DNA of 64,000 nt from NCBI RefSeq assembly GCF_030384885.1, contig NZ_CP128613.1; one strand, written 5' to 3'. Below the pieces are notes generated by a model. It was given only the letters and a program-made list of their open reading frames with translations, searched no databases and was not told the origin of the DNA. Origin of the DNA: Escherichia coli. Lineage in GTDB: Bacteria; Pseudomonadota; Gammaproteobacteria; Enterobacterales; Enterobacteriaceae. Position numbers and translations under genes: made by a program. Of this stretch, positions 9,151 to 64,000 are shown piece by piece. The stretch's first letter is position 1; the number at the start of each line of letters is the position of its first letter.

Positions 9151-9306
9151 TGTAAACCTTAACTTAACACTGTGATAGATATTAGACCATTGATGATAAC
9201 CAATACAAGTCATACTATTACGCCGTTCTCGATATGAACACAAATGCCAGTTGCGGATAATAGAAATGATATTTAAATCTGTTTAGGCAAATCCCTGGAG
9301 CTTGAA

Positions 9307-10227: not shown

Positions 10228-10399
10228 TAACCTTGCAGGGAGATTCATTATCTCCCTGAGATTTATCCTTTATTGACTACACAACAATAATGAAATTACT
10301 CAAAAAGAATTCTATTAAAGGAAAAAAGCATCAAAAAGTAGCAACTCAACTTATTAAGATTATACGCATTAAAATCAGATAAACATTTGAGGTATTGTT

Positions 10400-11542
10400 A
10401 TGACAAATAAACACCCATCATTGTTTTCTCCTTTTATGCTGACAGAAAAAATAAAGCTACGTAATCGTATCGTTATGGCCCCTATGACGACCTGGTCAGC
10501 GAATCCTGATGGAACCATCTCTGAGCAAGAACTCGAATTTTATAAACGCCGCTCACAAAATGTTGGTTTAGTAATAACAGGATGTACCTATGTCACGCCA
10601 AGCGGCATTGGGTTTACTCATGAATTTGCCGCATATGACGACCGTTTCATTAACAGCCTTGAAAAGTTAGCAGCGGCAGCCCAAAGTGGGGGTGCTCCGG
10701 CTATTTTGCAGATTTTCCACGCCGGTAATAAAGCCATCCCGGAGCTTGTACCAAATAACGATGTTATTAGTGCCAGCGCATCAAGCGTAAAATCTGGTGA
10801 CTTTATGAAGAGAGTGGTACAAAGCAGGGAAATGACTGAAAACGAAATTCAGGAAACCATTAGAGCATTCGGAGATGTCACAAAAAGGGCGATTAAAGCA
10901 GGTTTTGATGGCATTGAACTTCATGGTGCGCACGGATTCCTTCTACAGAATTTCTTCTCCCCTCTATTTAACCAGCGTAATGACCGATGGGGAGGAGATC
11001 TCGAAGGACGTATGCGCTTCCCGCTGGCCGTATTACAGGAAGTAAAAAATGTAGTCTATGAATATGCGACAAAGCCCTTTGCCATCGGTTACAGAATATC
11101 TCCTGAAGAATCTGCAACAGGGGGGCTGCGGATAGAGGATACTTATAAACTCCTTGATCGGCTCATTTCATCCGGTATTTCGTATATACATACCTCGCTG
11201 GTCAGTATTAACGATAGCTACCCTGTTGAGTCGCCAAATGGCCCCCGAACTATTGAATTGATTTTAAATCATATTGCAGGCAGAGTGCCGGTAATCGCTG
11301 CAGGTAAAATACGCACACCGTCTCAGGCTCAAGAAGCAATTTCCACTGGCCTGCCACTTGTTGCGATCGGTAAAGGGCTGGTGATAAATCCAGAATGGGT
11401 GACTTTAGCTGAATCAGGTAGAGGCCATGAAATTCAAACAACCCTTAATCCACAACTTGTTCCTGAATTAACCATTCCGGATAAACTATGGGATCAAATT
11501 CAGACATCGAAAGGAACTGGCTGGTTTCCGTTAATGGATTAA
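10400..11542 (+). CDS. NADH:flavin oxidoreductase (Old Yellow Enzyme family)
   Basis: 380-aa ORF; RIVMAPMTT.. and HGAHGFLL motifs typical of OYE/NemA-type reductases. Confidence 0.75.
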   Translation: MTNKHPSLFSPFMLTEKIKLRNRIVMAPMTTWSANPDGTISEQELEFYKRRSQNVGLVITGCTYVTPSGIGFTHEFAAYDDRFINSLEKLAAAAQSGGAPAILQIFHAGNKAIPELVPNNDVISASASSVKSGDFMKRVVQSREMTENEIQETIRAFGDVTKRAIKAGFDGIELHGAHGFLLQNFFSPLFNQRNDRWGGDLEGRMRFPLAVLQEVKNVVYEYATKPFAIGYRISPEESATGGLRIEDTYKLLDRLISSGISYIHTSLVSINDSYPVESPNGPRTIELILNHIAGRVPVIAAGKIRTPSQAQEAISTGLPLVAIGKGLVINPEWVTLAESGRGHEIQTTLNPQLVPELTIPDKLWDQIQTSKGTGWFPLMD

Positions 11543-22500: not shown

Positions 22501-22730
22501 ATGCAAAACCTGAACACCCTGTGGTATTCCCCTGGCATTATCACTTTCGCGATTAACCAACAGCCAGACCAGCAAACACGCCACTACAGGCACAGCAAAA
22601 TCCATCAGGCTTGCCACACCCCATGCGTGCGGCTCAAAGCCGCCCCGCCATGGCATATTAATCCGCTTACCATTTTCGAACAGCTGATTGGTTTAGTCCG
22701 GTGTTTCCCTGCTTGCACTTAAAAATGAGC

Positions 22731-22820
22731 GGATGGGAAACTCTCGAAATGGTTCGTCGATATGCTCACCTTTCAGTCAGGCATTTCACCGCGCACGCGA
22801 GCAAAATCAAAGGCACATGA
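22731..22820 (+). pseudogene. 3' remnant of a second P4-type integrase gene
   Basis: Encodes ..[14 protein letters not shown].. then stop, matching the C-terminus ([14 protein letters not shown]) of the intact integrase at 34943-36106; lies directly beside the left att copy. Confidence 0.6.
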
Positions 22821-22851
22821 GGAGAATGTGGTTGACTTAAAAACGAGGAAA

Positions 22852-22913
22852 CTTATTGATTTAAATGGTGCCGATAATAGGAGTCGAACCTACGACCTTC
22901 GCATTACGAATTA
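22852..22913. repeat. left 62-bp direct repeat (att copy; duplicates 3' part of tRNA-Thr plus 16 bp)
   Basis: Identical to 36105-36166 by direct comparison. Confidence 0.8.
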
Positions 22914-34942: not shown

Positions 34943-36106
34943 ATGTCACTCTTCCGCAGAAGTGAAATATGGTACGCCAGTTTCACATTGCCGAACGGTA
35001 AAAGATTTAAACAGTCTCTTGGAACAAAGGACAAAAGGCAGGCGACAGAGCTCCATGACAAGCTAAAGGCTGAAGCATGGCGGGTCAGCAAACTTGGTGA
35101 AATACCTGATATGACGTTTGAGGAAGCGTGTGTCAGGTGGCTCGAAGAGAAAGCACATAAGAAATCACTGGACGATGACAAAAGCCGGATCGGATTCTGG
35201 CTTCAACATTTCGCAGGGATGCAACTAAGAGACATCACTGAATCAAAAATTTATTCAGCGATGCAGAAAATGACAAACCGGCGTCATGAGGAAAACTGGA
35301 AACTCAGGGCAGAAGCATGCAGAAAAAAAGGGAAACCTGTTCCAGAATACACGCCAAAACCAGCGTCCGTTGCAACGAAGGCTACGCATCTTTCATTTAT
35401 AAAGGCCCTGCTAAGAGCCGCAGAGCGTGAATGGAAAATGCTGGATAAGGCACCAATTATTAAAGTGCCTCAACCGAAGAATAAACGTATCCGCTGGCTG
35501 GAGCCTCATGAAGCACAAAGGCTGATTGATGAATGTCCGGAGCCATTAAAGTCTGTTGTTGAATTTGCACTGGCAACAGGCTTAAGACGCTCGAACATCA
35601 TCAACCTTGAATGGCAACAAATAGACATGCAGCGCCGGGTGGCATGGATAAACCCGGAAGAGAGTAAATCAAACCGCGCAATTGGCGTTGCGCTGAATGA
35701 TACTGCATGTCGCGTATTGAAAAAACAAATCGGGAATCATCACCGTTGGGTATTTGTATACAAGGAAAGCTGTACCAAACCAGACGGAACGAAAGCGCCA
35801 ACGGTCAGGAAGATGCGGTATGACGCAAACACAGCCTGGAAAGCGGCGCTGAGACGAGCAGGTATTGATGATTTCAGATTTCACGACTTGAGACACACCT
35901 GGGCAAGTTGGCTGGTTCAAGCCGGAGTCCCGTTGTCAGTGTTACAGGAAATGGGAGGCTGGGAGTCTATCGAAATGGTTCGTCGATATGCTCACCTCGC
36001 ACCTAATCACCTTACCGAACATGCACGGCAAATAGACTCGATCCTGAACCCATCGGTCCCAAATTTGTCCCAGTCAAAAAATAAGGAAGGTACTAATGAT
36101 GTGTAA
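34943..36106 (+). CDS. int: tyrosine integrase (P4/DLP12 IntD-like)
   Basis: 387-aa ORF with HDLRHT...YAHL catalytic tail, ending 15 bp before the tRNA 3' end. Confidence 0.9.
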
Positions 36107-36166
36107 CTTATTGATTTAAATGGTGCCGATAATAGGAGTCGAACCTACGACCTTCGCATTACGAAT
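36105..36166. repeat. right 62-bp direct repeat (att copy overlapping tRNA-Thr 3' end)
   Basis: Identical to 22852-22913. Confidence 0.8.
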
Positions 36167-36196
36167 GCGCTGCTCTACCAACTGAGCTATATCGGC
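36121..36196 (-). tRNA. thrW: tRNA-Thr (anticodon CGU)
   Basis: Reverse complement reads GCCGATATAGCTCAGTTGGTAGAGCAGCGCATTCGTAATGCGAAGGTCGTAGGTTCGACTCCTATTATCGGCACCA; cloverleaf-compatible, CCA end. Confidence 0.9.
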
Positions 36197-49154: not shown

Positions 49155-50084
49155 TTAGAGAACGCTGAACAAATTCAACTCACTCACCTTCGAGTAAGTC
49201 TTGAGGGTAGCTTCCATTGCCACTTCCAGTCCGGTAAAGGTGATCGACGCCGGGCCGTAATCGAGATCCTGCAATGAACCAATCAACTCATCATTAGAGG
49301 TAGAGATATCGGTCTGCGCATCGCTCAGCATCGACATGGTGTTTTGTGTCTCGCCGAGCGACGCAATCGAGGCGTTGAGGTCGTCCGAGGCGGTGTCCAC
49401 CACATTAACGGCGTTTTGAATATCGCTTTGTACCTGCGGATCTGCCGGGTCAACGTTAGGGTTTTGCAACTCCTGCGACAGGGCATTGAGCGTGTTGAGC
49501 ACATCTAAATTGCTGCCAAAGAAATCGCTCGCCGCCACGTTGGTGTCTACTTCGACGCCGTTCGACACCGTAGTCTGGCGATGGTCGCTGTTACCCTGAT
49601 AGCTGTAGCGATCGGTCACGCCATCACCGTCATCGTCCACCGCCACAATCGGCGGTTGATCGTTGATAGTGCCGCCAAAGACGTAATGCCCGTCTTCATC
49701 CTGATAGTTGAGCGCCGCCACCATCGATTCGGTTAGCGACTCAATATCCTGACCGAGGCTTGCCAGCGAATCGGCGGTATTGGTGCCGTTCGCTGCTTCC
49801 AGCAGGTCGTCGCGCACCGCCAGCAGGCTGTTGTTGACGCCATCAAGAATGGATTCCTGCTGGCTTAAGCCCGCCGACGCGGAGTCGATATTGCTCTGAT
49901 ACTGCTCAATCGCCGACTGCTGGCGGTTCAACTGGGTGATACGTGTGGCGGCGATAGGATCATCCGATGGCTGCAAAATTTCCTTGCCGGTTGCCATCTG
50001 CTCGACCACGTGCGCCAGTTCGCCAGAAAGATTATTAAAACTTTGCGTCATCGAGACGTAGGTTTGTTGGGTGGTTACTCGCAT
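49155..50084 (-). CDS. lfgL: flagellar hook-associated protein 3 (lateral system)
   Basis: FlgL-like N-terminus from MRVTTQQ; flagellin-type terminal helices. Confidence 0.8.
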   Translation of the reverse strand: MRVTTQQTYVSMTQSFNNLSGELAHVVEQMATGKEILQPSDDPIAATRITQLNRQQSAIEQYQSNIDSASAGLSQQESILDGVNNSLLAVRDDLLEAANGTNTADSLASLGQDIESLTESMVAALNYQDEDGHYVFGGTINDQPPIVAVDDDGDGVTDRYSYQGNSDHRQTTVSNGVEVDTNVAASDFFGSNLDVLNTLNALSQELQNPNVDPADPQVQSDIQNAVNVVDTASDDLNASIASLGETQNTMSMLSDAQTDISTSNDELIGSLQDLDYGPASITFTGLEVAMEATLKTYSKVSELNLFSVL

Positions 50085-50098
50085 TTTCGCGCTCCCGC

Positions 50099-51475
50099 TT
50101 AGCTGCACATTTCCAGCACCGAATCAAAAATCTCGGCCCCGGCGGAAATGACTTTCAGATTGGCTTCATAAATTTGTTGATAGGTGATCAGGTTCACCGC
50201 CTCTTCGTCCATGCTGACGCCGCTGACGCTGCTCTGCTGGTTTTGCGCCTCAGAATAGACATTGGACGCAGCGGTCACTTCGGTCTGGTTTTGCTGAGTG
50301 TAAATGCCAATATTGCTGATGATCGACGAGCACGCTTGCCCGACCGTCACGCTGCCGAGGTTGGCTATCTCCAGCGGCTCAGTGGAGATGTTGATCAGCG
50401 CCTGCAGGTTGTCGCTGTTGCCGCTTTCGTCCGGCGAACTGGAGAACGCCAGTTCATCGGCGGTGATATCCGGGTTAACGGTCAGCGGGCCATCGGCATT
50501 ACTGGCATCGTAAATAAACAGCGGCTCGCCGGGGTTACCGTTGAGATCATAGCCCTGCGCCAGCTGATTGTTGACCGCATCGGCGAACTGCGACGCCATG
50601 CTGTTGATGGTGTCGGTCAGCGGCGTCAGCACGTCGTTTTGATAATCAAAAAGTGCGCCTAATGAACCGCCGGTATCGGTGGTCATGGTCGAGGTCGTTC
50701 CGGCAAAGGTCAGTGTCATCGTTGGCGTGCCATCGGCGTTGGTTTCCAGCGCGATGGTCGAACTTTGCTGCCCGCTCACCAGCGGCTGACCGTTTTGCAG
50801 GGTGACGTTGTAGTTGCCCTGGTCGTCGATATTGACCTGCACATCCATCATTCCGCTGAGTTCTTCCACCATCTGATCACGAGCGTCATACAGCGCGGAG
50901 GCGTTATCACCGTTGGCTTCGGCCTGGGCGATTTGCTGGTTATAGCTGGCGATGCCGCTGGTGAGCGTATTGATTTGCGACACCATCGCCTGCTGCTGGC
51001 TGATGATTTCTGTGCTTTGCGAGTCGATGTAATCGAGCGTGTTATCGATACGCAACGACAGCGCCCCGGCTTCGCTGATCACCTGCTCGCGCAGGGCAGA
51101 ATCATCGGGGCTGGTGGTCGCTTCGTTGAGGGCCGCGAAAAAGTTATCGAACCCGCCGCTCAGGCTACTGTTATCGTCGCTCAATACCGCTTCCAGTTGC
51201 GTGAGATACCCTTGCTGGGTGTTGTAATAGCCGTAATCGCTGGCGGCATACCACACCTGATTCACCTGATACTGGTTGGAGACGCGACGAATGCTGTCCA
51301 CCTGTACACCGTTTCCGGCGCTGTTCGGCGAACCGCCGCTGGCACCGATGGTGCTGATCTCCGCCACCTGGCGGGTGTAGCCCGTGGTCATGGCGTTAGC
51401 GGTGTTTTGCGCCGTGACGTTCAGCTCCACCTGCGCCGTTGATGCGCCGCTGTAGCCGATGTTAATCATGTCCAT
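50099..51475 (-). CDS. lfgK: flagellar hook-associated protein 1 (lateral system)
   Basis: 458-aa ORF; FlgK-like N-terminus ..AQNTANAMTTGYTRQ.. Confidence 0.85.
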   Translation of the reverse strand: MDMINIGYSGASTAQVELNVTAQNTANAMTTGYTRQVAEISTIGASGGSPNSAGNGVQVDSIRRVSNQYQVNQVWYAASDYGYYNTQQGYLTQLEAVLSDDNSSLSGGFDNFFAALNEATTSPDDSALREQVISEAGALSLRIDNTLDYIDSQSTEIISQQQAMVSQINTLTSGIASYNQQIAQAEANGDNASALYDARDQMVEELSGMMDVQVNIDDQGNYNVTLQNGQPLVSGQQSSTIALETNADGTPTMTLTFAGTTSTMTTDTGGSLGALFDYQNDVLTPLTDTINSMASQFADAVNNQLAQGYDLNGNPGEPLFIYDASNADGPLTVNPDITADELAFSSSPDESGNSDNLQALINISTEPLEIANLGSVTVGQACSSIISNIGIYTQQNQTEVTAASNVYSEAQNQQSSVSGVSMDEEAVNLITYQQIYEANLKVISAGAEIFDSVLEMCS

Positions 51476-51544
51476 GTTGGATCCTTACCGGTAAATCGTG
51501 CCGGATAAAAGCGGCGTGAAGTTGGGGATTCTTAAGTTCCGTAA

Positions 51545-51895
<351 letters not shown>

Positions 51896-51896
51896 C

Positions 51897-52196
51897 TCAT
51901 TTATGCTTCGGCGACAACTGCTTCACAATCATCGCCGCGATCCCTATCCCGTGCTGCTGCGCCAGGGTGTTACACAACTCATCGTCATAAAACCCCTGCA
52001 TCATGCGCACCGAATCGCTGTTAAATGGGTTATCTTTCGAATCAAACAACTCGTTGGTTTTACGCATCTCTTTCAGCATGTTGCGTAAAAAAATCGCCTC
52101 AAACTGTTCGGCGGCCTGCTTAATATCATTGGCCTGAACCTTCGGCCCCATTAACGCATCGCTGCCGTCAATCCCGCCGCTGGCGTTGACTTTCAT
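51897..52196 (-). CDS. lfgJ: FlgJ-like rod-binding protein, short form without muramidase domain
   Basis: 99-aa ORF; ..QFEAIFLRNMLKEMRKT.. aligns with FlgJ N-terminal rod-binding domain. Confidence 0.7.
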   Translation of the reverse strand: MKVNASGGIDGSDALMGPKVQANDIKQAAEQFEAIFLRNMLKEMRKTNELFDSKDNPFNSDSVRMMQGFYDDELCNTLAQQHGIGIAAMIVKQLSPKHK

Positions 52197-53296
52197 CAGA
52201 TCACCTCCAGGTCGGCATCCAGCGCGCCCGCTTCATGCAGCGCCTGCAAAATCGACATAATGTCGTCCGGCGTTGCGCCTAAACTGTTCAGCGCATTGAC
52301 CAGCGTTTTCAGGCTGCTCGACTCCGGCAAACTCACCACGCCCGGACGGGCATGATTCACCGCGATATTGCTCTGCGGCGTTACCGCCGTACGCCCGCCC
52401 GCAAAGGCATTCGGCTGGCTGACGTTGCTGGTTTCGTTAATTGAGACGGTCAGGCTGCCGTGCGACACCGCCGCCGCGTGCAGCGCGATGCCATCGCCCA
52501 TCACCACCGTACCGGTACGCGAGTTAAACACCACGCGGGCGCGGATTTTCTCCGCCTGCACCTGCACATCATCCAGTTGCGACATAAACGCCACCCGCGC
52601 GCCGGGGCTGGTGGGCGCACGCACGGTGACGTTGGTGGAACTCTGCGCCGTGGCAATGCCGCCAAACGAAGCGTTGATCGCCGCCGCAATGTTGTTGGCG
52701 TCTTTAAACGACGGGCGTTTCAGGTTAAGCGTGATGGTGTCGCCCATCTGAAAATCGCTGGGGATTTCGCGCTCCACCGTCGCGCCATTGGGGATTAACC
52801 CGGCGGTCGGCGTATTAACCGTTACGCTCGAGCCGCTGGCCCCGGTGGCATTCATCCCGCCCACCACCACACTTCCCTGCGCCAGGGCATACACTTCGCC
52901 ATCTGCGCCGTGCAACTGGGTCAGCAGCAAGGTGCCGCCGCGAATACTTTTGGCATCGCCAATCGACGAGACGGTGACATCAATAGTCTGCCCACGCGAG
53001 TACATCGGCGGCAACGTGGCGCTCACCGCCACCGCGGCGACGTTTTTCACCTTCGGGTCGATTTTATTTGGCAACTGCACGCCAAACTGGCGCAGCATAT
53101 TGGTGATGGTCTGGTTGGTGAATTTGACCTGGTTTTTATCGCCCGTACCGTCGAGGCCGACCACCAGGCTGTAGCCGACCAGTTGGTTTTCACGCACGCC
53201 CTGTACGTTGACCAGCGACTCCAGCGATTGCGCCAGCGCCACGCCAGGTAGCGCCAGGCTTACGGCTACCATCACCGTTTTTATCCAGTTTTGCAT
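52196..53296 (-). CDS. lfgI: flagellar P-ring protein
   Basis: FlgI-like; start at Met with GGAGAG RBS giving signal peptide [22 protein letters not shown]. Confidence 0.9.
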
Positions 53297-53310
53297 TGCA
53301 CTCTCCGGCA

Positions 53311-53976
53311 TTAAATCGGGAACAGAGGATGGTTAAACAGCCGGGTCAGCCAGCCTGCGGCGTTGGCGTCGCTTAACGCGCCACGTCCGGCATAGGAGAT
53401 ACGGGCGTCGGCGATCCGCTGGGAAGAAACCGAGTTGTCATTCTGGATATCGTCGGCGCGCACCAGGCCGCTTAAGCGGATGTACTCATCGCCCTGATTG
53501 AGGGTGAGCCATTTCTCGCCGCGAATTTCCAGGATGCCGTTGGGCTGCACCGCATGGACGGAAACAGTGATCTCCCCGCGCAGACTGTTCTGCTGCTGGG
53601 ACGTGGCGCTGCCGTCAAAGTCGCGGTTGGCGTCGATGGAGCCGGAGAGGTTATTTTTGGTGTGACCAAATACCGTTGGCGCGGTGATATCGACGCTGTT
53701 GCTTTTGCCGAAATTGGTTTTCGCCTGTTTGCTCGACTGGGTCGATTCTTCGAGGATCACCGTCAGGATATCGCCCACGCGATAAGCCCGCCGATCGGCG
53801 GTTAGCGACCAGTTGTAGCCCGTTTCAAACACGCCCCCGGCACGCCCGTCTGCCGGAGGCGGCGCTTCGGTTTTCGGTGGCGCAAAGTATGCGTCGTCTT
53901 TTTTGACCAGAATGGCCTGCGATTCACACCCGCTAAGCAGGGGAAGCAGCGCCACCAGCCAGAGATAATTTTTCAC
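53311..53976 (-). CDS. lfgH: flagellar L-ring lipoprotein
   Basis: 221-aa ORF with lipobox LLSGC. Confidence 0.9.
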
Positions 53977-54045
53977 GTTCTGCCTGTTTAGTGTTGCAGG
54001 CCACGGGGTGGCCGGTTGTTTGGTGGGTTGGAGCGGGTTTGTTCC

Positions 54046-54158
54046 CCCTCACCCTAACCCTCTCCCCAAAGGGGCGAGGGGACCGATCGAGCGCGTTTTT
54101 ACATCGTGCTCCACTTTTCTCCCTCTCCCTGTGGGAGAGGGCCGGGGTGAGGGCATCA
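54046..54158. repeat. about 112-bp GC-rich palindromic intergenic repeat, copy 1
   Basis: Terminal inverted motifs CCCCTCACCC...GGGTGAGGG and internal hairpin CCCTCTCCC-TGT-GGGAGAGGG; reverse complement of copy at 61282-61392. Confidence 0.65.
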
Positions 54159-54179
54159 GGCCGCACCGCCCTTAACGCC

Positions 54180-54965
54180 TTACAGCGTCTGACTGATGTA
54201 CTGCAACATATCGTCCGCCGCCGACACCATTTTGGCGTTCATCTCGTAGGCACGTTGCACCGTAATCATCGCCACCATTTCGTTGACGATATCCACGTTC
54301 GAGCCTTCGAGCGCATTGTCCTGCAAGGTGCCAAGCCCATCTTCGCCCGGTACGCCTTCGGTCGGCTGACCGCTGGCGGCGGTTTCCAGATAGAGGTTGT
54401 CACCCTCGGCAGAAAGCCCCGCCGGGTTGGCGAAGTTGACCAGCGTCAGTTGCCCTAACTCGGTCACGTCGCTGTCGCCAGGTAAGATAGCCGTCACCGT
54501 GCCGTCCTCACCAAACGCAACATTCGTCGCCCCCGCCGGAACGTCGATTTCCGGCTGTAACGGCAAGCCCTGCGAGTTGGTCAGCACGCCGTCGGCGTTC
54601 ACCTGCAAGTTGCCGTCGCGGGTATAGGCGATATCGCCGTTGGCCTTTTGCACCTGCAAAAACCCCTGCCCCATAATGGCGACATTCATCGCGTTGTCGG
54701 TGGTTTCGACGTTGCCTTCGGTAAAGGTTTTCTGAGTGCCGACAATGCGCACGCCGCTACCGAATTGCAGCCCGGTCGGCATGATGTTGTTCTGGTCGAG
54801 CATCGCGCCCGGCGCTTCCTGGGTCTGGTAGAACAGATCCTGAAACATCACCCGGTCGCGCTTGAAGCCGGTGGTGTTAACGTTGGCGATGTTGTTGGCA
54901 ATCGCGCTCATTTCAGCATCCTGCGCCGAGAGGCCGGTTTTGCTGATCCATAATGCTGCGTTCAT
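54180..54965 (-). CDS. lfgG: flagellar distal rod protein
   Basis: 261 aa from MNAALWISKTGL; ORF-track extension upstream runs into a REP element. Confidence 0.85.
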   Translation of the reverse strand: MNAALWISKTGLSAQDAEMSAIANNIANVNTTGFKRDRVMFQDLFYQTQEAPGAMLDQNNIMPTGLQFGSGVRIVGTQKTFTEGNVETTDNAMNVAIMGQGFLQVQKANGDIAYTRDGNLQVNADGVLTNSQGLPLQPEIDVPAGATNVAFGEDGTVTAILPGDSDVTELGQLTLVNFANPAGLSAEGDNLYLETAASGQPTEGVPGEDGLGTLQDNALEGSNVDIVNEMVAMITVQRAYEMNAKMVSAADDMLQYISQTL

Positions 54966-54984
54966 GGTGGTAAATTCCGTGTTA

Positions 54985-55140
<156 letters not shown>

Positions 55141-55143
55141 CGG

Positions 55144-55881
55144 TTACGAGCCGCGCAATAAGCGGTTGCCCGCGTCGCTGATATCTTCGGCGGTTTTCAT
55201 CATTTTGATCTGCGCTTCAAACTGGCGGTTCATGGCGATGGACGACATCATTTCGCTCACCGCCGAGACGTTGCTGCCCTCGAGAAAACCGCCGCTGACT
55301 TTGATGTTTTCATCACGCTGGGCCGGAACGCCGTCGCTAGTCACCAGCATCCCTTCAGGATTTTTCGCCAGGTTAGCAACCGGGATATCCACCAGCTTCA
55401 GGCGGTCGATATCCATCGTGGCGGTCACGTCACCGTCATCGGGCGTCACCGACAGCGTGCCGTCGCTGCCAAACGAGGCAATGGCGTTCGGCGGCAGAAT
55501 GATCGGGCCGTTATCCCCCAGTACCAGATTGCCGTCGATGGTCAGTTGCCCCTGATCGTCCTGCTGAATGTTGCCGTTGCGGGTATAAACTTCGTTGCCG
55601 TTTTTATCCTGCACCGCAATGTAACCCGCCCCCTGAATCGCCACGTCCAGCGGGCGTTCGGTTTTCTCCGCCACACCCGTGCTGTCGTTCACGCCGCTGG
55701 CCCCTTCCTGCGCCATATAGCGCGTGTCGAAGCCGCCGCCTTTCACCTTGTCGTTGGTCGCCATCGCCATATCGGCGCGAAAACCGTTGGTGTTGACGTT
55801 CGCCAGGTTGTTGGCGCTAATTTGCTGCTCGTACAACGTCTGAGAAGCCCCGCTCAGGGCGGTATAAATCAAGCGATCCAT
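55144..55881 (-). CDS. lfgF: flagellar proximal rod protein
   Basis: 245-aa FlgF-like ORF; start overlaps lfgE stop. Confidence 0.9.
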   Translation of the reverse strand: MDRLIYTALSGASQTLYEQQISANNLANVNTNGFRADMAMATNDKVKGGGFDTRYMAQEGASGVNDSTGVAEKTERPLDVAIQGAGYIAVQDKNGNEVYTRNGNIQQDDQGQLTIDGNLVLGDNGPIILPPNAIASFGSDGTLSVTPDDGDVTATMDIDRLKLVDIPVANLAKNPEGMLVTSDGVPAQRDENIKVSGGFLEGSNVSAVSEMMSSIAMNRQFEAQIKMMKTAEDISDAGNRLLRGS

Positions 55882-57083
55882 TACATTGCCTGGAACAGCG
55901 CGTCATCGAGCTGTGTGCTGGTGGCGATAACTTTGGTGTTGGCCTGATAGTTACGCTGGGCGGTCATCAGGTTAACCAGTTCGCTGGTGATATCGACGTT
56001 AGAGCTTTCGAGCACACCGGACGACAGCGTGCCGCAGGTGCCGGAGCCGGGAACGCCAATCAGTGGCGTGCCGGATTCCCCGGTTTGTACCCATGCGGTG
56101 CCGCTCACTGCCTCCAGGCCGTTTTCATTCGGGAAAGTCGCCAGCACCACTTGGCCCTGCAACATGCGCTCGCCGTTGCTGTAGGTGGCGTAAACTTTGC
56201 CATCGTCATCAACCTGCACACCGTTTTGCGTGGCGGAAGCGTAACCGTTGGCGGAGTTGGTGGTGACAGAAAATTCAGAACCGTATTGCGTACAGGTGGA
56301 GTAATCGACGGTCAAATCGATGGGCGCGGCGGCGTCGGTCTGAAACTCAATGGTCTGCGGCGTAGTTGGCGAGGTCAGTTTTCCGGTATTCGGGTCGAAG
56401 GTTAAGGTCGTCGCCGGAACACCAGTCTGCTGCTGACCGTCGAAGGTGTACTGCACTTCCCAGGTGTTATCGCTGGTTTTGGTGAAGTACTGGCATACCG
56501 AGTGTTCGTTACCTAATGAGTCATACACCGTGGTGGTGTAGCTGTCGGTGTACGAACTGCTGTTGGTCGGATCGAACGGCACGGTAGTGCGGTCGATAGC
56601 GTCGTCACTGGCATCGAAGTTGGCGGTAAAGGTCAGGCTGCTGCTGGCCTGCGCCGGGATATTGCCGGTTTTGATCTGGATATCCGTCACCGTACCGGTT
56701 TGCAAAGTGCCGCTGTCATCGACCGGATAGCCCTGCAAATAAGCGCCCGAGGCGTTAACGATATAGCCGTCTTTGTCCGTTTCAAACGATCCGGCGCGGG
56801 TATAAGAGATGTTGCCTGCGCTGTCGCACATCACAAAAAAGCCGTCGTCGTTAATCGCCAGATCCAGCGCATTACCGGTGGAGACCAGCGAACCGCCGCG
56901 CGAAATACTTTGCGCGGTGCCCGCCACGCTGACGCCCATTGCCTGGCTTCCGGCATACATGGCTGAAAACTGGGTAGTCATCGACTTATACCCCACCGTT
57001 CCGGCGTTAGCGATGTTGTTACTGATCCCGTCCAGCTGTTCGTTAACGGCATTCAGCCCCGTTGCGGCAATTTCATAACTCAT
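55881..57083 (-). CDS. lfgE: flagellar hook protein
   Basis: 400-aa FlgE-like ORF. Confidence 0.9.
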   Translation of the reverse strand: MSYEIAATGLNAVNEQLDGISNNIANAGTVGYKSMTTQFSAMYAGSQAMGVSVAGTAQSISRGGSLVSTGNALDLAINDDGFFVMCDSAGNISYTRAGSFETDKDGYIVNASGAYLQGYPVDDSGTLQTGTVTDIQIKTGNIPAQASSSLTFTANFDASDDAIDRTTVPFDPTNSSSYTDSYTTTVYDSLGNEHSVCQYFTKTSDNTWEVQYTFDGQQQTGVPATTLTFDPNTGKLTSPTTPQTIEFQTDAAAPIDLTVDYSTCTQYGSEFSVTTNSANGYASATQNGVQVDDDGKVYATYSNGERMLQGQVVLATFPNENGLEAVSGTAWVQTGESGTPLIGVPGSGTCGTLSSGVLESSNVDITSELVNLMTAQRNYQANTKVIATSTQLDDALFQAM

Positions 57084-57106
57084 TGTTTCTTCCTGTTAAT
57101 TGATTC

Positions 57107-57820
57107 TTACGCCACATCACTGTCGGCATCGGGTACGCCAAACTGGCTAATCATGGTGAACGGCACTTCGCCCACACCTGCAACGTTGAGCACCGGAGAG
57201 CTGCCGTCGAGCGGGATACGTACATCCTCCACTTCGCCGGAGACTTCAATCGGTACCTCTTCTTCCCCGGTGTTGGTCACCACCGAAACGTCGTAATCAC
57301 CCGGCGGGATGCCGTAATCCGCCGGATTAATCGAGAAATCAACCTGGCCTGGTCCAACCGACGAACTCCCTTCCGGGATCAGCGAGACGGTGTAGTCATC
57401 GCCCGCGGCATCGGTAAAGTGGAGTTCGGCGGTGGTACAGGCGTCGTCCAGTGTGGCGCGACCGTTAATGGTCTGGTCACTCACCTGCAAGGCGGTGGTC
57501 TGCACCATAATGTCGTCGCCCACCAGGTTGCCGAGCGCCATCACCTGAATGTTGCTCATCAGCACCGCGTTGGTATTGGCCTGCACGCTCATCTCTTCCA
57601 TCATCGCCACCTGCGCCATCGACGAAAGCTGGTCGATATATTCGGTGGCATCGGTCGGGTCGGTCGGGTCCTGGTTTTGGATCTCGGCGACAAACAGCGT
57701 CAGGAAAGTATCGACGGGCGAGCTATCGCTGCTGCTTGTCGTGTCGCTGGCCGCCACGTTGTTGCTTTCCGCCGTGGCGGTCGGCTGCGGCGATTGCGCA
57801 TTCAGCGCCAGGGTATTCAT
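57107..57820 (-). CDS. lfgD: flagellar hook capping/assembly protein
   Basis: 237-aa FlgD-like ORF. Confidence 0.85.
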   Translation of the reverse strand: MNTLALNAQSPQPTATAESNNVAASDTTSSSDSSPVDTFLTLFVAEIQNQDPTDPTDATEYIDQLSSMAQVAMMEEMSVQANTNAVLMSNIQVMALGNLVGDDIMVQTTALQVSDQTINGRATLDDACTTAELHFTDAAGDDYTVSLIPEGSSSVGPGQVDFSINPADYGIPPGDYDVSVVTNTGEEEVPIEVSGEVEDVRIPLDGSSPVLNVAGVGEVPFTMISQFGVPDADSDVA

Positions 57821-58251
57821 CAGGCTTCTCCCAGTTTCAGCAGGCTTTGCTGCATACTTTTCACGTTGTTGAGCACATCGACATTGGTTTCAAAATCGCG
57901 CGAAGCCGACATCATGTCCGCCATCTGTTCCACCACGTTGACGTCGGGATACCAGACATCGCCGTTGGCATCCGCCAGCGGCGAATGCGGTTCATAGCGT
58001 TTCAGCGCCCCGCCGGTTTGCAGCACGTCCTGCACCTGCACGCTGGCGCCGTCAATGGCATGACGATGCGTTCCCGCCAGCAAACTGTGGTGATACACCG
58101 CGGCAAACACCGGGCTGCGTGCTTTATACGCCTGCGCCTCGCTGCTGGCGGGCGCATTGGCATTCGCCAGGTTACTGGCGACGGTATTCAGACGCAGCGT
58201 TTGCGCCGTCATCGCCGAGCCGGAAATCTGATAGATATCAGTAAATGACAT
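57820..58251 (-). CDS. lfgC: flagellar proximal rod protein
   Basis: 143-aa FlgC-like ORF. Confidence 0.9.
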   Translation of the reverse strand: MSFTDIYQISGSAMTAQTLRLNTVASNLANANAPASSEAQAYKARSPVFAAVYHHSLLAGTHRHAIDGASVQVQDVLQTGGALKRYEPHSPLADANGDVWYPDVNVVEQMADMMSASRDFETNVDVLNNVKSMQQSLLKLGEA

Positions 58252-58253
58252 GC

Positions 58254-58589
58254 TTATTTCCCTTCAATGGCCTCTCTGATACCGCTGATTTGCAGATTCA
58301 GAAAGGTCAGACTGCTTTGATAATCCATACTATTTTGTGAAAACCGCGCCTGTTCGCTGTTCAGTTCCACGGTGTTACCATCTTCCGACGGCTGCATCGG
58401 CACGCGGTACTGCACATCCACCGCCGCGTTATTTGCCCGTTGCATCTCCCTGGCAAAATCAATATCTTTAGCCTTGAAATTTGGCGTATCGACATTCGCC
58501 AGATTCGCAGTCAGTAGCTCGGTCCTCTCAAGACGTAACTTCACTGCCTGCGGATGTACTCCCAATGCTTGCTGAAAACTGATCCCCAT
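58254..58589 (-). CDS. lfgB: flagellar proximal rod protein
   Basis: FlgB-like; start at MGISFQQ because a sigma-54 promoter occupies the longer ORF's first codons. Confidence 0.8.
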   Translation of the reverse strand: MGISFQQALGVHPQAVKLRLERTELLTANLANVDTPNFKAKDIDFAREMQRANNAAVDVQYRVPMQPSEDGNTVELNSEQARFSQNSMDYQSSLTFLNLQISGIREAIEGK

Positions 58590-58624
58590 TTCTTGCGTCA
58601 CTCCCGCTTCAATCCGCATACGCT

Positions 58625-58641
58625 AAGCAATCGCTGTGCCA
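58625..58641 (-). promoter_or_regulatory. sigma-54 (-24/-12) promoter for lfgB operon
   Basis: Minus strand reads TGGCAC-AGCGA-TTGCT, exact -24 GG / -12 GC spacing. Confidence 0.55.
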
Positions 58642-58670
58642 ATTTTTAAGTGACTGATGAGAAAGGGTTT

Positions 58671-59408
58671 ATGAGTTTTCAATTTTGCAGGCGGAAGTTG
58701 TATTTCCTCCTGGCGCTGGCCTTACCGGGCTACGCCGCCGTCCATCCCGTGCAACATAGCGCGCGGGAACAAGTCAACGCCCAGGTGCTGAATGCCGCGA
58801 GCCAGCAGATTGAATCGCTGGCGCAACAGCGGCAGTGGCATGACTATCGCTACACCTTTAAGGTCTACATTCCCTCGCAGATTGCGACCGCCGCGCCCTG
58901 CGCTACGGCCCCCGGCGTCACGCTGACTTCGCCTGCGGAAATCGCTCTCAACCGGATGAACTTCACCGTCAGTTGCCCGCAAAGCTGGCAGATGAACGTT
59001 GCGGTGCGCCCGGATGTTCTGGTGCCGGTGGTGATGGCGAAGTCACTGGTTGCCCGCGATACGCCGCTCACGGCAAATGATGTGGAGCTGAAGCCCTACA
59101 ACGTCAGCGCCCAGCGGCGGGATGTGCTGATGGATCTCAATGAAGCGATTGGTTTAAGCAGCAAACATGCCCTGCAACCAGGCAGGCCGCTTACCAAAGA
59201 AGAACTGGTTTCGCCAGTGCTGATCGAGCGCGATCAGCCGGTGATGATTGTTTACCAGAGCGCGGGGATCACCGCCTCGATGCCCGGCGTGGCGCTGAAA
59301 AATGGTCGCAAAGGGGAAATGGTGAAAGTACGTAACGCCAGCAGTCAGCGGGTCATTAGCGCAATAGTGGCGGAAAGCGGCGTGGTGACAACGGTAAGCG
59401 CGGAGTAA
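58671..59408 (+). CDS. lfgA: flagellar P-ring assembly chaperone
   Basis: FlgA-like ORF, signal peptide from internal Met; divergent from lfgB. Confidence 0.75.
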   Translation: MSFQFCRRKLYFLLALALPGYAAVHPVQHSAREQVNAQVLNAASQQIESLAQQRQWHDYRYTFKVYIPSQIATAAPCATAPGVTLTSPAEIALNRMNFTVSCPQSWQMNVAVRPDVLVPVVMAKSLVARDTPLTANDVELKPYNVSAQRRDVLMDLNEAIGLSSKHALQPGRPLTKEELVSPVLIERDQPVMIVYQSAGITASMPGVALKNGRKGEMVKVRNASSQRVISAIVAESGVVTTVSAE

Positions 59409-59488
59409 TTTACGCAGGCGATTAAAGTTTTGCCGCCTGTTAACCGCTTTACCGGAGTAACACACCTTCAAACAGAGACGAGGTTGCG

Positions 59489-59764
59489 ATGAAAATCACC
59501 CCGACTATGCCAGGCAATCGCCCGACAGCCACAACGGCAGGCTCCAGCCAGCCGCGCAAAACTACGGCGACCACCACGACGCTCAGCGCCGACGACATTA
59601 CCCAGGCGGGATTGCAGTCTGCCCAGCAAACGCTGAACGACCAGCAAGAGAGCGATATCGACAGCGATAAAGTGGCGCAAATGCAGGCGATGCTGGCGTC
59701 CGGCAGCCTGCAAGTGGACACCGAACAGTTAGCCAGCGACATGCTGAGTTTTTTCCAGAACTAA
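59489..59764 (+). CDS. lfgM: anti-sigma-28 factor FlgM-like
   Basis: 91-aa ORF, Thr/Gln-rich, C-terminal amphipathic helix pattern. Confidence 0.7.
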   Translation: MKITPTMPGNRPTATTAGSSQPRKTTATTTTLSADDITQAGLQSAQQTLNDQQESDIDSDKVAQMQAMLASGSLQVDTEQLASDMLSFFQN

Positions 59765-59776
59765 GAGGCCGATGAA

Positions 59777-60205
59777 GTGAGTATCCGGTTACAACAGGTG
59801 AAGGCGTTGTTGCAGGGAATTCGTGACGACGACGCACTGTACGATTCCCTGCGCGAACTTCTCCAGCGTCAGCGGATCTGCATGATTCGCCGCGCCAGTG
59901 AAGAGTTGATGGCGGTAAACGACGAGATAACGCAGCACTATGAGCAGTTGCATGGGCATAGCCATCAGCGGCACAGCCTGCTGCAACTGCTGGGTGTCAG
60001 CGTAAATCGTGACGGTCTGGCGCAGGTGTTTGCCTGGCTTCCGGCGGTACAAAAAGCGGCAGCACAACAGTTGTGGCAACGCCTGGAGCAAAAAACGGAA
60101 CGCTGCAAAGCCTATAACGATAAAAACGGCGAGCTGTTGATTCGTCAGTATGAATTTATTCAGTCTTTTTTAGGCAGCGAAGCGGATTTTCTGTATCAGG
60201 AATAA
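59777..60205 (+). CDS. lfgN: FlgN-like export chaperone
   Basis: 142-aa ORF, GTG start, follows lfgM. Confidence 0.65.
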   Translation: MSIRLQQVKALLQGIRDDDALYDSLRELLQRQRICMIRRASEELMAVNDEITQHYEQLHGHSHQRHSLLQLLGVSVNRDGLAQVFAWLPAVQKAAAQQLWQRLEQKTERCKAYNDKNGELLIRQYEFIQSFLGSEADFLYQE

Positions 60206-60331
60206 CGCGAATACCTTCCCCATAGCGGAAACGGATTTTCCGCCTGATTTCCAATCCTTTGTTTTTGATGAAAAAAAATCCCGGCACGCTTATTGCACAT
60301 CCTGCACAGCATTAAAGACTGGAAGCCACCT

Positions 60332-61261
60332 ATGAGTTTTATTGAATGTTACGAACCGGAATATGTGCGCAATTTTATGGCGCAATATCCCGATTCGCCT
60401 TTATACGTCCGCAAGGTGTGGAAGAATGAGATTCGCCAGAGCCTGGCATTGACCGATATTGCCAGTTGCAAAGCAGTGCTCAACGATGCCAGGGCCTTTG
60501 AATTACAGCTTACCTATCGCCCTGTGGAAGAAAATGCCGCAGCACTCTCCGCGCGCGATGCGATAGTAAACCAGATAATTTTGAGCACCCTCACGCTCCC
60601 GGATTTAACCCCAGAGCTTTCACTGTATGCCGTCGGTATCCTGCTCTCCCGCGCCAATAAAATGCCGGGCAGAGACGGCGACACTCTTGCCCGGCTGACA
60701 ACGCTGCCGCAGGCGCTGGCCGATCACGCACAAAAAGGCACGCTACAGGCACAGTTCGCCCAGCTACCGCCCGTGCCACAGCTGGCGCGCCAACTGGTGA
60801 CACTGCTCGGCAGTTGTGCGTTTGACTGGTCGATTCTGCCAGAAAGCCCGCGCAAAGCCTCGCTACCGTTGCAGGTGACTTTGCTGACGCTGCACGACGC
60901 CAACAGCGAAGCCCTGTTACAGCATCAGCTTCAGACGCAGTGGCAAACCACCTGGCAACAGCATTTTGCCACCGCGCCGTGGATGATGCGTAACTGGCTG
61001 ATTTACCGCGTTTACCACGATGTGATTGGGCAGACTGACGGGGCGGATTATTGCCCGCTGGTGTGCGATTTTTACCTCATCCGCACGTTAATCAGTTTAT
61101 GGACGCTGGATGATTCACCGCTGCGGCAGGAGGATATTTTCGCCCTCTTCGCGGTGTTTGAACGCTGGCGAGTGAGTGAAAATGCGCTGTTAGTTCGCCA
61201 GCAAATTCAGTCGTTATGTGCCGCCGAGCCGCTGCTTTCAGCGTTTTCGCTGCTTACATGA
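60332..61261 (+). CDS. hypothetical protein associated with lateral flagellar locus
   Basis: ORF 60293-61261 (TTG-initiated in track); first ATG at 60332; no motif. Confidence 0.45.
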   Translation: MSFIECYEPEYVRNFMAQYPDSPLYVRKVWKNEIRQSLALTDIASCKAVLNDARAFELQLTYRPVEENAAALSARDAIVNQIILSTLTLPDLTPELSLYAVGILLSRANKMPGRDGDTLARLTTLPQALADHAQKGTLQAQFAQLPPVPQLARQLVTLLGSCAFDWSILPESPRKASLPLQVTLLTLHDANSEALLQHQLQTQWQTTWQQHFATAPWMMRNWLIYRVYHDVIGQTDGADYCPLVCDFYLIRTLISLWTLDDSPLRQEDIFALFAVFERWRVSENALLVRQQIQSLCAAEPLLSAFSLLT

Positions 61262-61281
61262 ATCGCTCTGTGCGCGCTGAT

Positions 61282-61392
61282 GCCCCTCACCCCGGCCCTC
61301 TCCCACAGGGAGAGGGAGAAAACCTGCGCCCAATTCAGCACCACGCTCGATCGGTCCCCTCGCCCCTTCGGGGAGAGGGTTAGGGTGAGGGG
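61282..61392. repeat. about 112-bp GC-rich palindromic intergenic repeat, copy 2 (inverted relative to copy 1)
   Basis: Reverse complement aligns with 54046-54158. Confidence 0.65.
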
Positions 61393-61451
61393 CAAAGCGC
61401 GCATAGCGCCTCCTAACCCATCACATTCACCCACTAACTCACCCAAACACC

Positions 61452-63923
61452 ATGCCAACACCAAGCATCATCAAAACACTCGCCACCCACCGCGAAAAAC
61501 CGTTCGTCAGCGTCGTCACGCCAACCTGGAACCGCGGCGCATTCCTCCCGTACCTGCTCTATATGTACCGCTATCAGAACTACCCGGCAGACCGCCGCGA
61601 ACTGATCATCCTCGACGACTCACCGCAAAGCCATCAACACATCATCGACCGCCTGACCAATGGCACACCGGAAGCCTTTAACATCCGCTACATCCATCAC
61701 CCGGAAAAACTGCCGCTGGGCAAAAAACGCAATATGCTCAACGAACTGGCGAGCGGCGAATATATCCTCTGCATGGATGACGACGACTACTACCCGGCAG
61801 ATAAAATCTCCTGGACCATCGCCATGATGCAAAAACACCGGGCGCTGATCTCTGGTTCCGACCAGATCCCCATCTGGTACAGCCATATCAACCGCATCTT
61901 TCAAAGCCGCAGCTTTGGCCCGCATAACATCCTCAACGGCACCTTTTGTTATCACCGTAACTACCTGAAAAAGCACCGTTACGATGACGATTGCAATTTA
62001 GGCGAAGAGAAAAGTTTCACCGACAATTTCAGCGTTAACCCGCTACAACTGCCCAGCGAACGCACCATTTTGTGTATCTCGCATAGCCACAACACCTTTG
62101 ATAAAGATTTTATTCTTGGGGCCAGCACGCCTGTAAATGCCGAACTGAGCGATATCGTCAGCGATCCGCTGCTACGCAATGCTTATCTGAGTCTGCATAA
62201 CGCCACGCATCACCAGGGGATCAACCATCAGGCGATCGATCAGATAGTTGTTGTGAATCTGGATAAACGCCCGGATCGTTTACGGCAGATCCGTGAAGAG
62301 CTGGCATTGCTGCATATTCCGCCTGAAAAAATTACCCGCCTTGCCGCCTGTGAAGATGAAAACGGTCAACGGGGCCGCCGCCTGTCGCACTTGCAGGCGC
62401 TACGCCTGGCGCAACAGCACAGCTGGCAAAATTACCTGCTGCTGGAAGATGACGCGGTTATTCTCAAGCAGGAGAAACATATTCAGGTACTGAACACGCT
62501 GCTGGCGAGCCTGGCGAAAATCCCCTGGCAGGTGATGATCCTTGGTGGCGAAATTTCGCAAGGAACAATGCTAAAAAGCCTGCCGGGGCTGGTGCACGCG
62601 CGGGACTGCCGCAAAGTGTGCGCTTATCTGGTGAACAGTCGTTACTACCCACAACTGGCGCAGCAGATGGGCAACGATGAGCACTCGCTGGAAGACGGCT
62701 GGCAGCCACTGCTACGCGCCGACAAATGGCTGGCCTGTTACCCGAGTATTTGTTACCAGCGACCGGGCTTTAGCGATATCGAGAAAAAAGCGACCGATAA
62801 CATCATTCACTATTTCAATAAGTTACCCATAGCCACAAAGCCATCCGCATTACCCATCGCCGACACCATCGGCTTTTTAATGGAAACCTCATTCCACTAC
62901 GCGCTCTATCGCCCAATCATCACCGCCCTACAGGCGCAGGGGCAAAGTTGCACACTGGTAATCAACGATCGCGTGTTTAAACCGTTTCTGGATGAAATGC
63001 TGGCGACGCTAAAAAGCATCGACGATCCGCAGCTTAAAGGTATGCGCTTGTCTGAAATGCAGGCACACGGTCAGCGGGTGAAATGCCTGGTCAGCCCCTA
63101 CCACACACCCGCGCTCAATGGCCTTTCACCCGTGAACATCCGCGCCATGTACGGCTTAGCCAAAGAAACGTGGAACCACGCCGACTGGAACCGTTTTTAT
63201 CAACGCATTTTGTGTTACAGCCACTACAGCCAGCAGGCGCTGGCGCACCTCAGCAGCGCGAAAGTGGTCGGCAACCCACGCTTCGACGCCTGGCATAACG
63301 GCACGTTTGACCGCGCCCTGCCGGAAAATATCCAACCCGATTCCCGTAAACCTACGGTGCTCTACGCCCCCACGTTTGGCGCATTAAGCTCCCTGCCCCA
63401 CTGGGCAGAAAAATTGGGGCGCTTGAGCGGTGATGTGAACCTGATTTGCAAACTGCACCACGGTACCTGCTCGCGCCCGGAAGAAGCCGCATCGCTAACC
63501 CAGGCACGCAGGCATTTAAAACAGTGCACCAACTCAGCCCAGCACACACTGGCGCAGCTGGCAAAGGCCGATTACGTGCTCACCGATAACAGCGGCTTTA
63601 TTTTCGATGCTATCCACGTTGATAAGCGAGTGATCCTGCTCGACTTTCCGGGTATGACGGAACTGCTCGACGGTGAGAAAAGTTACTCCACGGCGGAGAG
63701 CGCTGACCAGCGGATTCGCGAAATATTGCCGGTGGCTCATGATATGGCTGAGCTGCGTTACTTATTGTCAGAGGCGTTTGACTGGGGGGCGGTACAGGCG
63801 CGGCTTACGGAGATTCGCCATCACTATTGTGACGCGTTTATGGATGGCAAGGCGGGAGAACGGGCGGCGATGGTGGTTGTGGAGGCGCTGGCGGGCAAGG
63901 AACCGTCAGGAATATGTCGATAA
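61452..63923 (+). CDS. multidomain glycosyltransferase (GT2-like, GT25-like and TagF-like glycerophosphotransferase modules)
   Basis: 823-aa ORF; N-terminal VVTPTWNRG..LDDSP..CMDDDD (GT-A/DXD); middle VVNLDKRPDRL (GT25-like); C-terminal region TagB/F-like. Confidence 0.65.
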   Translation: MPTPSIIKTLATHREKPFVSVVTPTWNRGAFLPYLLYMYRYQNYPADRRELIILDDSPQSHQHIIDRLTNGTPEAFNIRYIHHPEKLPLGKKRNMLNELASGEYILCMDDDDYYPADKISWTIAMMQKHRALISGSDQIPIWYSHINRIFQSRSFGPHNILNGTFCYHRNYLKKHRYDDDCNLGEEKSFTDNFSVNPLQLPSERTILCISHSHNTFDKDFILGASTPVNAELSDIVSDPLLRNAYLSLHNATHHQGINHQAIDQIVVVNLDKRPDRLRQIREELALLHIPPEKITRLAACEDENGQRGRRLSHLQALRLAQQHSWQNYLLLEDDAVILKQEKHIQVLNTLLASLAKIPWQVMILGGEISQGTMLKSLPGLVHARDCRKVCAYLVNSRYYPQLAQQMGNDEHSLEDGWQPLLRADKWLACYPSICYQRPGFSDIEKKATDNIIHYFNKLPIATKPSALPIADTIGFLMETSFHYALYRPIITALQAQGQSCTLVINDRVFKPFLDEMLATLKSIDDPQLKGMRLSEMQAHGQRVKCLVSPYHTPALNGLSPVNIRAMYGLAKETWNHADWNRFYQRILCYSHYSQQALAHLSSAKVVGNPRFDAWHNGTFDRALPENIQPDSRKPTVLYAPTFGALSSLPHWAEKLGRLSGDVNLICKLHHGTCSRPEEAASLTQARRHLKQCTNSAQHTLAQLAKADYVLTDNSGFIFDAIHVDKRVILLDFPGMTELLDGEKSYSTAESADQRIREILPVAHDMAELRYLLSEAFDWGAVQARLTEIRHHYCDAFMDGKAGERAAMVVVEALAGKEPSGICR

Positions 63924-64000
63924 AATTCGATTTTTTAAACATGTCGTTGGAATACGTTTATGCCATCGACATGTTTTGGCGATATGTCGAAAAAACGCGA

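Follow-up and report, generated by a model that had tools for sequence, protein, structure and literature searches.

Inverted GC-rich repeats around Flag-2 flagellar genes of Escherichia coli correspond to paired BoxC/PIT/TMECO elements

The two palindromic repeats that bracket 7.1 kb of flagellar genes in Escherichia coli contig NZ_CP128613.1 are, to judge from their motif content, each one paired BoxC/PIT/TMECO element, a known non-coding, multicopy intergenic repeat. Within the 64,000-nt stretch that we analysed (the window), we consider it quite probable that these paired BoxC copies occupy independent spacers, that one of them has flipped in place in a minority of strains, that the 7.1-kb block between them has undergone no rearrangement, and that their spacers are locally hypervariable.

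A repeat search reveals one long inverted pair in the window, 54042–54153 and 61284–61395, whose 112-nt arms are 88% complementary and separated by 7130 nt. These arms fall within about 4 nt of the intervals 54046–54158 and 61282–61392, which a sequence-only reading had described as mutual reverse complements of about 112 bp. That reading named low identity on formal alignment as grounds for doubt; we instead find 88% identity between the left and right copies as reverse complements, compared with 53% in direct orientation, so their inverted relation is unambiguous. Each copy is also a quasi-palindrome, and direct-orientation identity is still 53%. Aligned segment by segment, the arms match at 48 of 49 positions in the A-side module and at all 39 of the B-side module, with unbroken identical runs of 39 (the longest), 25 and 23 bp; the 21-nt centre matches at 9 of 21 positions, which means that neither copy is a recent duplicate of the other. 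The copies are indeed GC-rich, their G+C content of 62–66% exceeding that of the locus (56%) and of the window (50%), and the terminal inverted motifs CCCTCACCC...GGGTGAGGG reported earlier are present at their ends. The internal hairpins had all been called perfect, which holds for the B module (CCCTCTCCC-TGT-GGGAGAGGG) but not for the A module, whose stem CCCTCTCCCC/GGGGCGAGGG carries one mismatch. The predicted folds of the copies as single-stranded DNA are long hairpins with energies of −32 to −35 kcal/mol (z = −4.1 to −4.9). The frame PLTLTLSPKGRGDRS is encoded in the open reading frames 53991–54458 (+) and 61207–61464 (−), which run across the two copies, and RefSeq annotates no CDS beneath such elements; the spurious 'PLTLTLSPKGRGD...' reading frames are accounted for by these repeats, as had been proposed.

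The family assignment rests on the TMECO motif, formerly known as BoxC or the PIT element, for which the available text of Holder et al. 2015 (PMC4666352) gives the consensus CCCTCNCCC-N3-6-GGGNGAGGG-N3-GGGNGAGGG, three blocks capable of forming a purine-motif intrastrand triplex. This published pattern has exactly four exact matches in the window, two per copy, whereas shuffled sequences (n = 100) yield an expectation of 0.00, and chance is therefore excluded. Each copy combines one type A motif (TTA in the second loop) and one type B motif (CCG in the second loop) on opposite strands (Table 1). The same source describes five K-12 sites at which A and B motifs lie close together on opposite strands, an arrangement noted earlier by Hoyne et al. 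2000. Our modules match the K-12 entries in Table 1 of PMC4666352, as available, over their full length: all 35 nt of the left type A motif agree with entries 7, 11 and 15 (36-nt entries with one extra G), and all 33 nt of the left type B motif with entries 1 and 4 (34-nt entries with one extra C). Four of the five K-12 pairs have inward third-strand blocks and spacers of 16–27 nt, whereas the window copies have outward blocks and a 40-nt centre, the outward geometry being that of K-12 pair 17+18 in the same accessible table. The K-12 pair between lldD and trmL has the outward geometry of the window copies, and like them it carries GGGGACCGTTCGG as an extension of the A side and a run rich in T ahead of the B module. 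Parts of the left-pair centre are common to other copies as well (GACCGATCGAGCG on the A side and TTTTCT on the B side), and the right pair is framed by an outer short inverted repeat, GTGCGCGCT...AGCGCGCA. Both window copies are intergenic, and nothing essential separates them from BoxC/PIT/TMECO, whose members are likewise strictly intergenic, multicopy and set in a hypervariable neighbourhood.

Table 1. Positions of the paired elements, their modules and the neighbouring genes in the window.
Feature	Position	Strand	Remarks
Left BoxC pair (composite), lfgH–lfgG spacer	54042–54166	.	core 54046–54153
B-end tail of left pair, CATCAGGCCGCAC	extends to ~54166		
Type A TMECO/BoxC, TTA loop, CCCTCGCCCCTTTGGGGAGAGGGTTAGGGTGAGGG	54046–54080	−	one stem mismatch ('A mm')
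Asymmetric centre, left pair	54081–54120	.	middle 21 nt copy-specific
Type B TMECO/BoxC, CCG loop, CCCTCTCCCTGTGGGAGAGGGCCGGGGTGAGGG	54121–54153	+	perfect 9-bp hairpin
Right BoxC pair, spacer between 322-aa ORF and glycosyltransferase gene	61270–61404	.	core 61284–61391
Type B TMECO/BoxC, CCG loop, right copy	61284–61316	−	
Type A TMECO/BoxC, TTA loop, right copy	61357–61391	+	one stem mismatch
lfgH (FlgH L-ring homologue), outside left copy	53311–53976	−	start codon 65 nt from element
Bracketed block	54180–61261		− strand: lfgG, F, E, D, C, B; + strand: lfgA, M, N, 322-aa ORF
Glycosyltransferase gene, outside right copy	61452–63923	+	

With the 121-nt left copy as query, matches occur in 5425 of 5426 complete E. 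coli genomes at a median of 18 places per genome, and the full-length composite (at least 80%) is present in 4033 of these genomes; together with the BoxC/PIT/TMECO assignment, this supplies the copy number and family that the sequence-only reading had left to a database search. The BoxC/PIT element reportedly goes back to Bergler in 1992 and to Bachellier in the 1990s. An Rfam search over 50000–64000 (E ≤ 1) returned no family at either copy. In the literature accessible to us, a search for later work on BoxC, PIT or TMECO found none beyond Holder et al. 2015, and Delihas 2011 makes no mention of the family.

Pfam confirms homologues of FlgG, F, E, D, B, A, M and N in the bracketed block, and the gene order agrees with the annotation of E. 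coli 042 (93.6% identity over 9.5 kb). Both lines of evidence uphold the earlier statement that the copies flank lfgG through lfgN plus one hypothetical gene, the 322-aa ORF, which has no Pfam match and is named in RefSeq records of relatives either hypothetical or lysine-N-methylase. The lfg gene names and the 'Flag-2' lateral-flagella label reportedly come from Ren et al. 2005. Between the start of lfgH and the left BoxC pair, positions 53999–54013 hold a small G/C hairpin, GGCCACGGGGTGGCC, which occurs only in alleles with the BoxC pair and was flagged as terminator-like on the + (non-coding) strand. The closest relatives of the Flag-2 allele in the window, MFDS1019527 (locus extract 8677–11393), MFDS1022581 and N96, carry genes for a DNA cytosine methyltransferase and a type II restriction endonuclease between flgA and flgM, an insert that is missing from the window. 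In strain R32_14_1F, about 500 bp without annotation separate flgE from flgD (locus extract 3815–4311), where the window has only 23 nt (57084–57106). Elsewhere in the window, 62 nt at 36105–36166, comprising part of a tRNA-Thr(CGU) gene (36121–36196) and 16 adjacent nt, recur with 100% identity at 22850–22911, 13.3 kb away, and an adjoining 85-nt repeat (22723–22807 and 35949–36033) is 73% identical. These tRNA-Thr repeats look like the attL and attR of an island integrated at this tRNA gene, possibly a tandem island.

The two copies lie in two independent intergenic spacers, and each is present or absent among strains independently of the other. ST131-type strains have neither copy, the O111:H8 strain 7-55 62A has only the right one, and 042 and the window have both. 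Where the left BoxC pair is missing, the whole lfgH–lfgG spacer (53977–54179 in the window) differs and holds one REP in ST131 and NRZ14408 or two in M8; the alternative allele at the right site is a different 46-bp spacer with a small hairpin. The left site has also been duplicated in tandem, with two full copies joined by CATCAGCGCGCACGTTCC in R32_14_1F (locus extract 321–690) and about 1.5 copies in LY180 (locus extract 321–630). The junction created in these tandems, B(+), a short spacer and A(−), resembles the inward geometry of four of the five K-12 pairs. At lldD–trmL, one strain has a 126-bp internal deletion that keeps the outer GGGGTGAGGGG arm, and in E. coli O145:H28 RM13516 the centre and inner arms of the pair are replaced by an unrelated palindrome, CTGTCTCTTGATCAGATCTCCTGATCAAGAGACAG (locus extract 340–480). 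This palindrome resembles two sequences like the inside end of IS50/Tn5 placed back to back. Absence, replacement by REPs, tandem duplication and flipping thus all contribute to a raised variability of BoxC spacers among strains, in agreement with the hypervariable TMECO loci and the 'palindrome effect' reported in the available text of PMC4666352.

The REP and BIME elements that take the place of BoxC pairs are likewise short, G/C-rich, palindromic, multicopy intergenic repeats of enterobacteria and occur in the same Flag-2 spacers in other strains, but they belong to a different sequence family. Between 50000 and 64000, the Rfam family naRNA4 matches (E ≤ 1) only at 51612–51913 and 54990–55131 and at neither BoxC copy. 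The first of these strong matches corresponds to three tandem 118-nt REP/BIME units (51557–51910) in the flgK–flgJ spacer, and the second to a REP pair between lfgF and lfgG (54990–55137), inside the bracketed block. The latter pair is missing in MFDS1019527, where the spacer measures 26 bp. The flgK–flgJ spacer shows the exchange in the other direction, with a BIME in the window (51476–51896) and a BoxC pair in MFDS1019527 (locus extract 919–1127). These observations suggest that one kind of site is targeted by, or tolerates, both BoxC pairs and REP/BIME elements. For REPs, the available part of PMC2817692 describes a mobilising enzyme, RAYT.

We then surveyed the orientation of the elements with locus-specific 121-nt probes (flank, first module and centre; at least 80% coverage). 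At the right site, 29 genomes carry the element B-first, as in the window, and 703 carry it A-first, as in 042; the right element is absent from the remaining ~540 Flag-2 genomes, ST131 among them. At the left site, 189 genomes have the native A-first order, and a synthetic probe for the flipped state gave no verified genome. Four genomes did match that probe at 82% coverage and 78.4% identity, and ETEC1738, the one inspected, proved to be unflipped with a replaced centre. The left element is A-first in every case examined. Motif maps agree with this census, showing A(−)B(+) at both sites in 042 and B(−)A(+) at the right site in MFDS1019527, R32_14_1F, N96 and the window.

The flanks of the right site match closely between the window and 042 up to the element boundary, reading ...TCGCTCTGTGCGCGCT before the element and AGC[G/A]CGCA... 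after it, and the right element of 042 or of O111:H8, once reverse-complemented, aligns with that of the window over its whole length. The right-site centre of the window, N96 and R32_14_1F is about 80% identical to that of 042 and O111:H8 but reverse-complemented, and the centre of the left copy is unrelated. Three alleles can be told apart. In the 042 type, the element runs A to B between the outer linkers TTTG and CATCAG; in the MFDS1019527 type, an intermediate, the inner part is flipped and the linkers are not; in the type shared by the window, N96 and R32_14_1F, everything is flipped, linkers included. The partially flipped state of MFDS1019527 indicates breakpoints within the inverted arms of the element itself, which on this alignment would fall in the GCGCGC outer repeat or in the CCCTCACCC/GGGTGAGGG blocks. 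The two copies are thus inverted in this genome only because the right element reversed its orientation in place within a single minority lineage, and the 29 B-first genomes may trace back to only one or two historical events. At the K-12 lldD–trmL pair, we found the flipped element in no genome and the native one in 2715, and flipping is therefore not a general behaviour of the family. The accessible text of Holder et al. 2015 (PMC4666352) makes no mention of in-place orientation polymorphism.

The copies had also been likened to miniature inverted-repeat transposable elements (MITEs), and as a description much of this stands: they are small (under ~300 bp), non-coding and intergenic, they have terminal inverted repeats, and they are present in many copies. 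As an explanation it would make the pair of ~110–130 bp a non-autonomous element mobilised in trans by a transposase that recognises the A and B ends, which we regard as unlikely. Target-site duplications and clean empty sites, which would complete the likeness to MITEs, were not found. The left window copy has no target-site duplication and the right only a 6-nt match, which is the background rate; around 122 paired elements from other genomes, 61.5% have no flanking direct repeat of at least 4 nt, compared with 62.3% of mismatched-flank controls, so that such repeats are not enriched. None of the three loci inspected (left Flag-2, right Flag-2 and lldD–trmL) offers a clean empty site; we see whole-spacer replacement, occupancy by REPs and internal deletion instead. 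Two hallmarks of MITEs have thus tested negative, and we regard this reading as unproven. The occurrence of the element in two orientations at one site would fit transposition, but the partial-flip allele favours breakpoints within the arms over excision and reinsertion of a fixed unit. BoxC/TMECO has, moreover, no association with transposons, phages or plasmids in the available text of PMC4666352.

The wider distribution of the paired form bears on the same question. We scanned species-representative genomes with the pattern CCCTCACCC-N3-CCCTCTCCC-N55-85-GGGAGAGGG-N3-GGGTGAGGG and obtained at least 120 loci. Among the matches listed are alpha-, beta- and gamma-proteobacteria, Thermodesulfobacteriota and other 'delta' lineages, a cyanobacterium, Verrucomicrobiota, Planctomycetota, Nitrospirales and a Chloroflexi MAG, and the identical 9-mer blocks of the composite span at least eight phylum-level groups. 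A composite with exact 9-mers across so many phyla suggests horizontal spread and in this respect favours a mobile element. To our knowledge, BoxC has no mobilising enzyme. The G/C-rich motif class is known from more than 260 prokaryotes, and the paired composite across phyla is not discussed in the accessible text of Holder et al. 2015 (PMC4666352). In Pseudomonas sp. EaCA-3 and P. nitritireducens, the paired BoxC elements form a homogeneous family of 115–118 bp, of which we captured 38 copies in both genomic orientations. Their centre (...GGGGACCGTTCGGTGCAGGATGAAACCA..GCGTCAGCCGGCACG...) is conserved, as are about 25 nt more past the B end; they show the A/B asymmetry of the E. coli pairs and two kinds of hairpin loop (3 nt or GCAAGC). 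Such a family speaks for the MITE reading; the differing centres of the E. coli copies speak against it. A broader proposal is that paired BoxC is a discrete asymmetric unit of ~100–130 bp, made up of A end, centre and B end, that is actively propagated by an undiscovered mobilisation or copying mechanism. The in-place turn, the exchange with REP/BIME elements and the 9-mers in at least eight groups would together point to such a mechanism, for which we see only a slim chance. If it were true, candidates would include a transposase acting on single-stranded DNA, or template switching directed by structure through recognition of the triplex or hairpin.

The position of the left copy, within a same-strand string of genes between lfgG and lfgH, raises the possibility of a cis-acting RNA, in which the transcribed hairpin would stabilise upstream mRNA or attenuate read-through in the manner of REP/BIME elements. 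The strong fold of the copies, the REP or two REPs that occupy the same spacer elsewhere and the converse swap in the flgK–flgJ spacer are compatible with this role. The transcribed strands, however, show no U/T tract 3′ of the stem, and our promoter and terminator scan called nothing at the elements except, at the centre of the right copy, a weak stem of five pairs. Compensatory covariation is also missing from the 38 Pseudomonas copies, where the covariation term is negligible (−0.45 kcal/mol, one pair with a double change), no Rfam family matches the copies, and strains exist in which neither site is occupied. Published tests of PIT elements found no promoter or terminator activity, according to the available text of PMC4666352. 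We therefore consider a cis-RNA function very unlikely.

The sequence-only reading had further proposed that the arrangement permits RecA-mediated inversion of the 7.1-kb block. The copies would recombine, lfgG–lfgN would invert, and the isomers could switch the expression of lateral flagella; inversion would separate lfgBCDEFG from the same-strand lfgHIJKL, and with the lfgB–L string split a phenotype would follow. RecA-dependent exchange in E. coli is said to need a minimum of about 23–27 bp, a value attributed to Shen and Huang in 1986. The copies are truly inverted in this genome, and their identical runs of 39, 25 and 23 bp lie close to this length. We probed complete E. coli genomes for the inversion junction, modelled as 400 nt of the lfgH-side flank followed by 400 nt of the inner right side in reverse complement, and required at least 80% coverage in one place. 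The junction occurs in none of 1279 Flag-2-bearing genomes, although only ~29 of these have the permissive inverted arrangement, so the power to detect a 7-kb inversion is far below what 1279 suggests, and the genomes are consensus assemblies in which rare inversions in a subpopulation are invisible. The native junctions are found in 1270 of 1274 genomes on the left and in 1275 of 1278 on the right. Of the 732 genomes that have a right copy, 703 carry it the other way round, as a partner for any left copy in a direct pair, which cannot invert; because the copies are direct in those genomes, deletion between them would be expected, and a junction of the outer-left to the outer-right flank was found in 0 of 1279. 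Many strains have one copy or none, the centres of the two copies are unrelated, and the annotations list no recombinase gene within or next to the block. Site-specific inversion systems such as fimS and hin also place inverted repeats around a block of DNA in a surface-organelle locus, but here there is no adjacent recombinase, only one orientation of the block is seen and the arrangement of the repeats is not conserved. The inversion idea is not supported, the inverted copies are not a designed or conserved inversion cassette, and we give block inversion next to no weight.

We return to paired BoxC elements as structure-prone, apparently non-functional intergenic repeats that cause local rearrangements of their spacers, which is the best-supported reading of the two copies. 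The quasi-palindrome could form an extruded structure, either a long hairpin or cruciform or, where replication leaves the DNA single-stranded, a transient triplex, and this structure would promote local template switching and slippage. As a result, the segment enclosed by the arms would flip, or the element would be duplicated in tandem, lose internal sequence or see its spacer replaced. The flip could proceed by intramolecular recombination or by replication template switching across the quasi-palindrome, both general properties of inverted repeats. The flip, duplication, deletion and replacement that we observe are consistent with a template-switch or cruciform mechanism of this kind, whose net effect would be to make the local spacer hypervariable, not to serve a regulated role in the expression of flagella. 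A view of the repeats as purely passive leaves the strict conservation of the 9-mers across many phyla unexplained. CD and NMR data are published for oligonucleotides of these sequence types, and in vivo DMS footprinting detected no stable triplex (PMC4666352, available text).

The BoxC repeats at this locus should not be taken as a sign of a phase-variation switch for the flagellar genes. The orientation and presence of BoxC elements vary between strains, which makes them poor anchors for synteny arguments. The repeat family has been described since the 1990s, and a publication of 2015 covered both the paired form and its connection with local instability. Modestly useful here are the in-place flip with its intermediate allele and the replacement of BoxC pairs by REP/BIME elements, and the reverse, in the same Flag-2 spacers, both of which bear on the question of how BoxC spreads.
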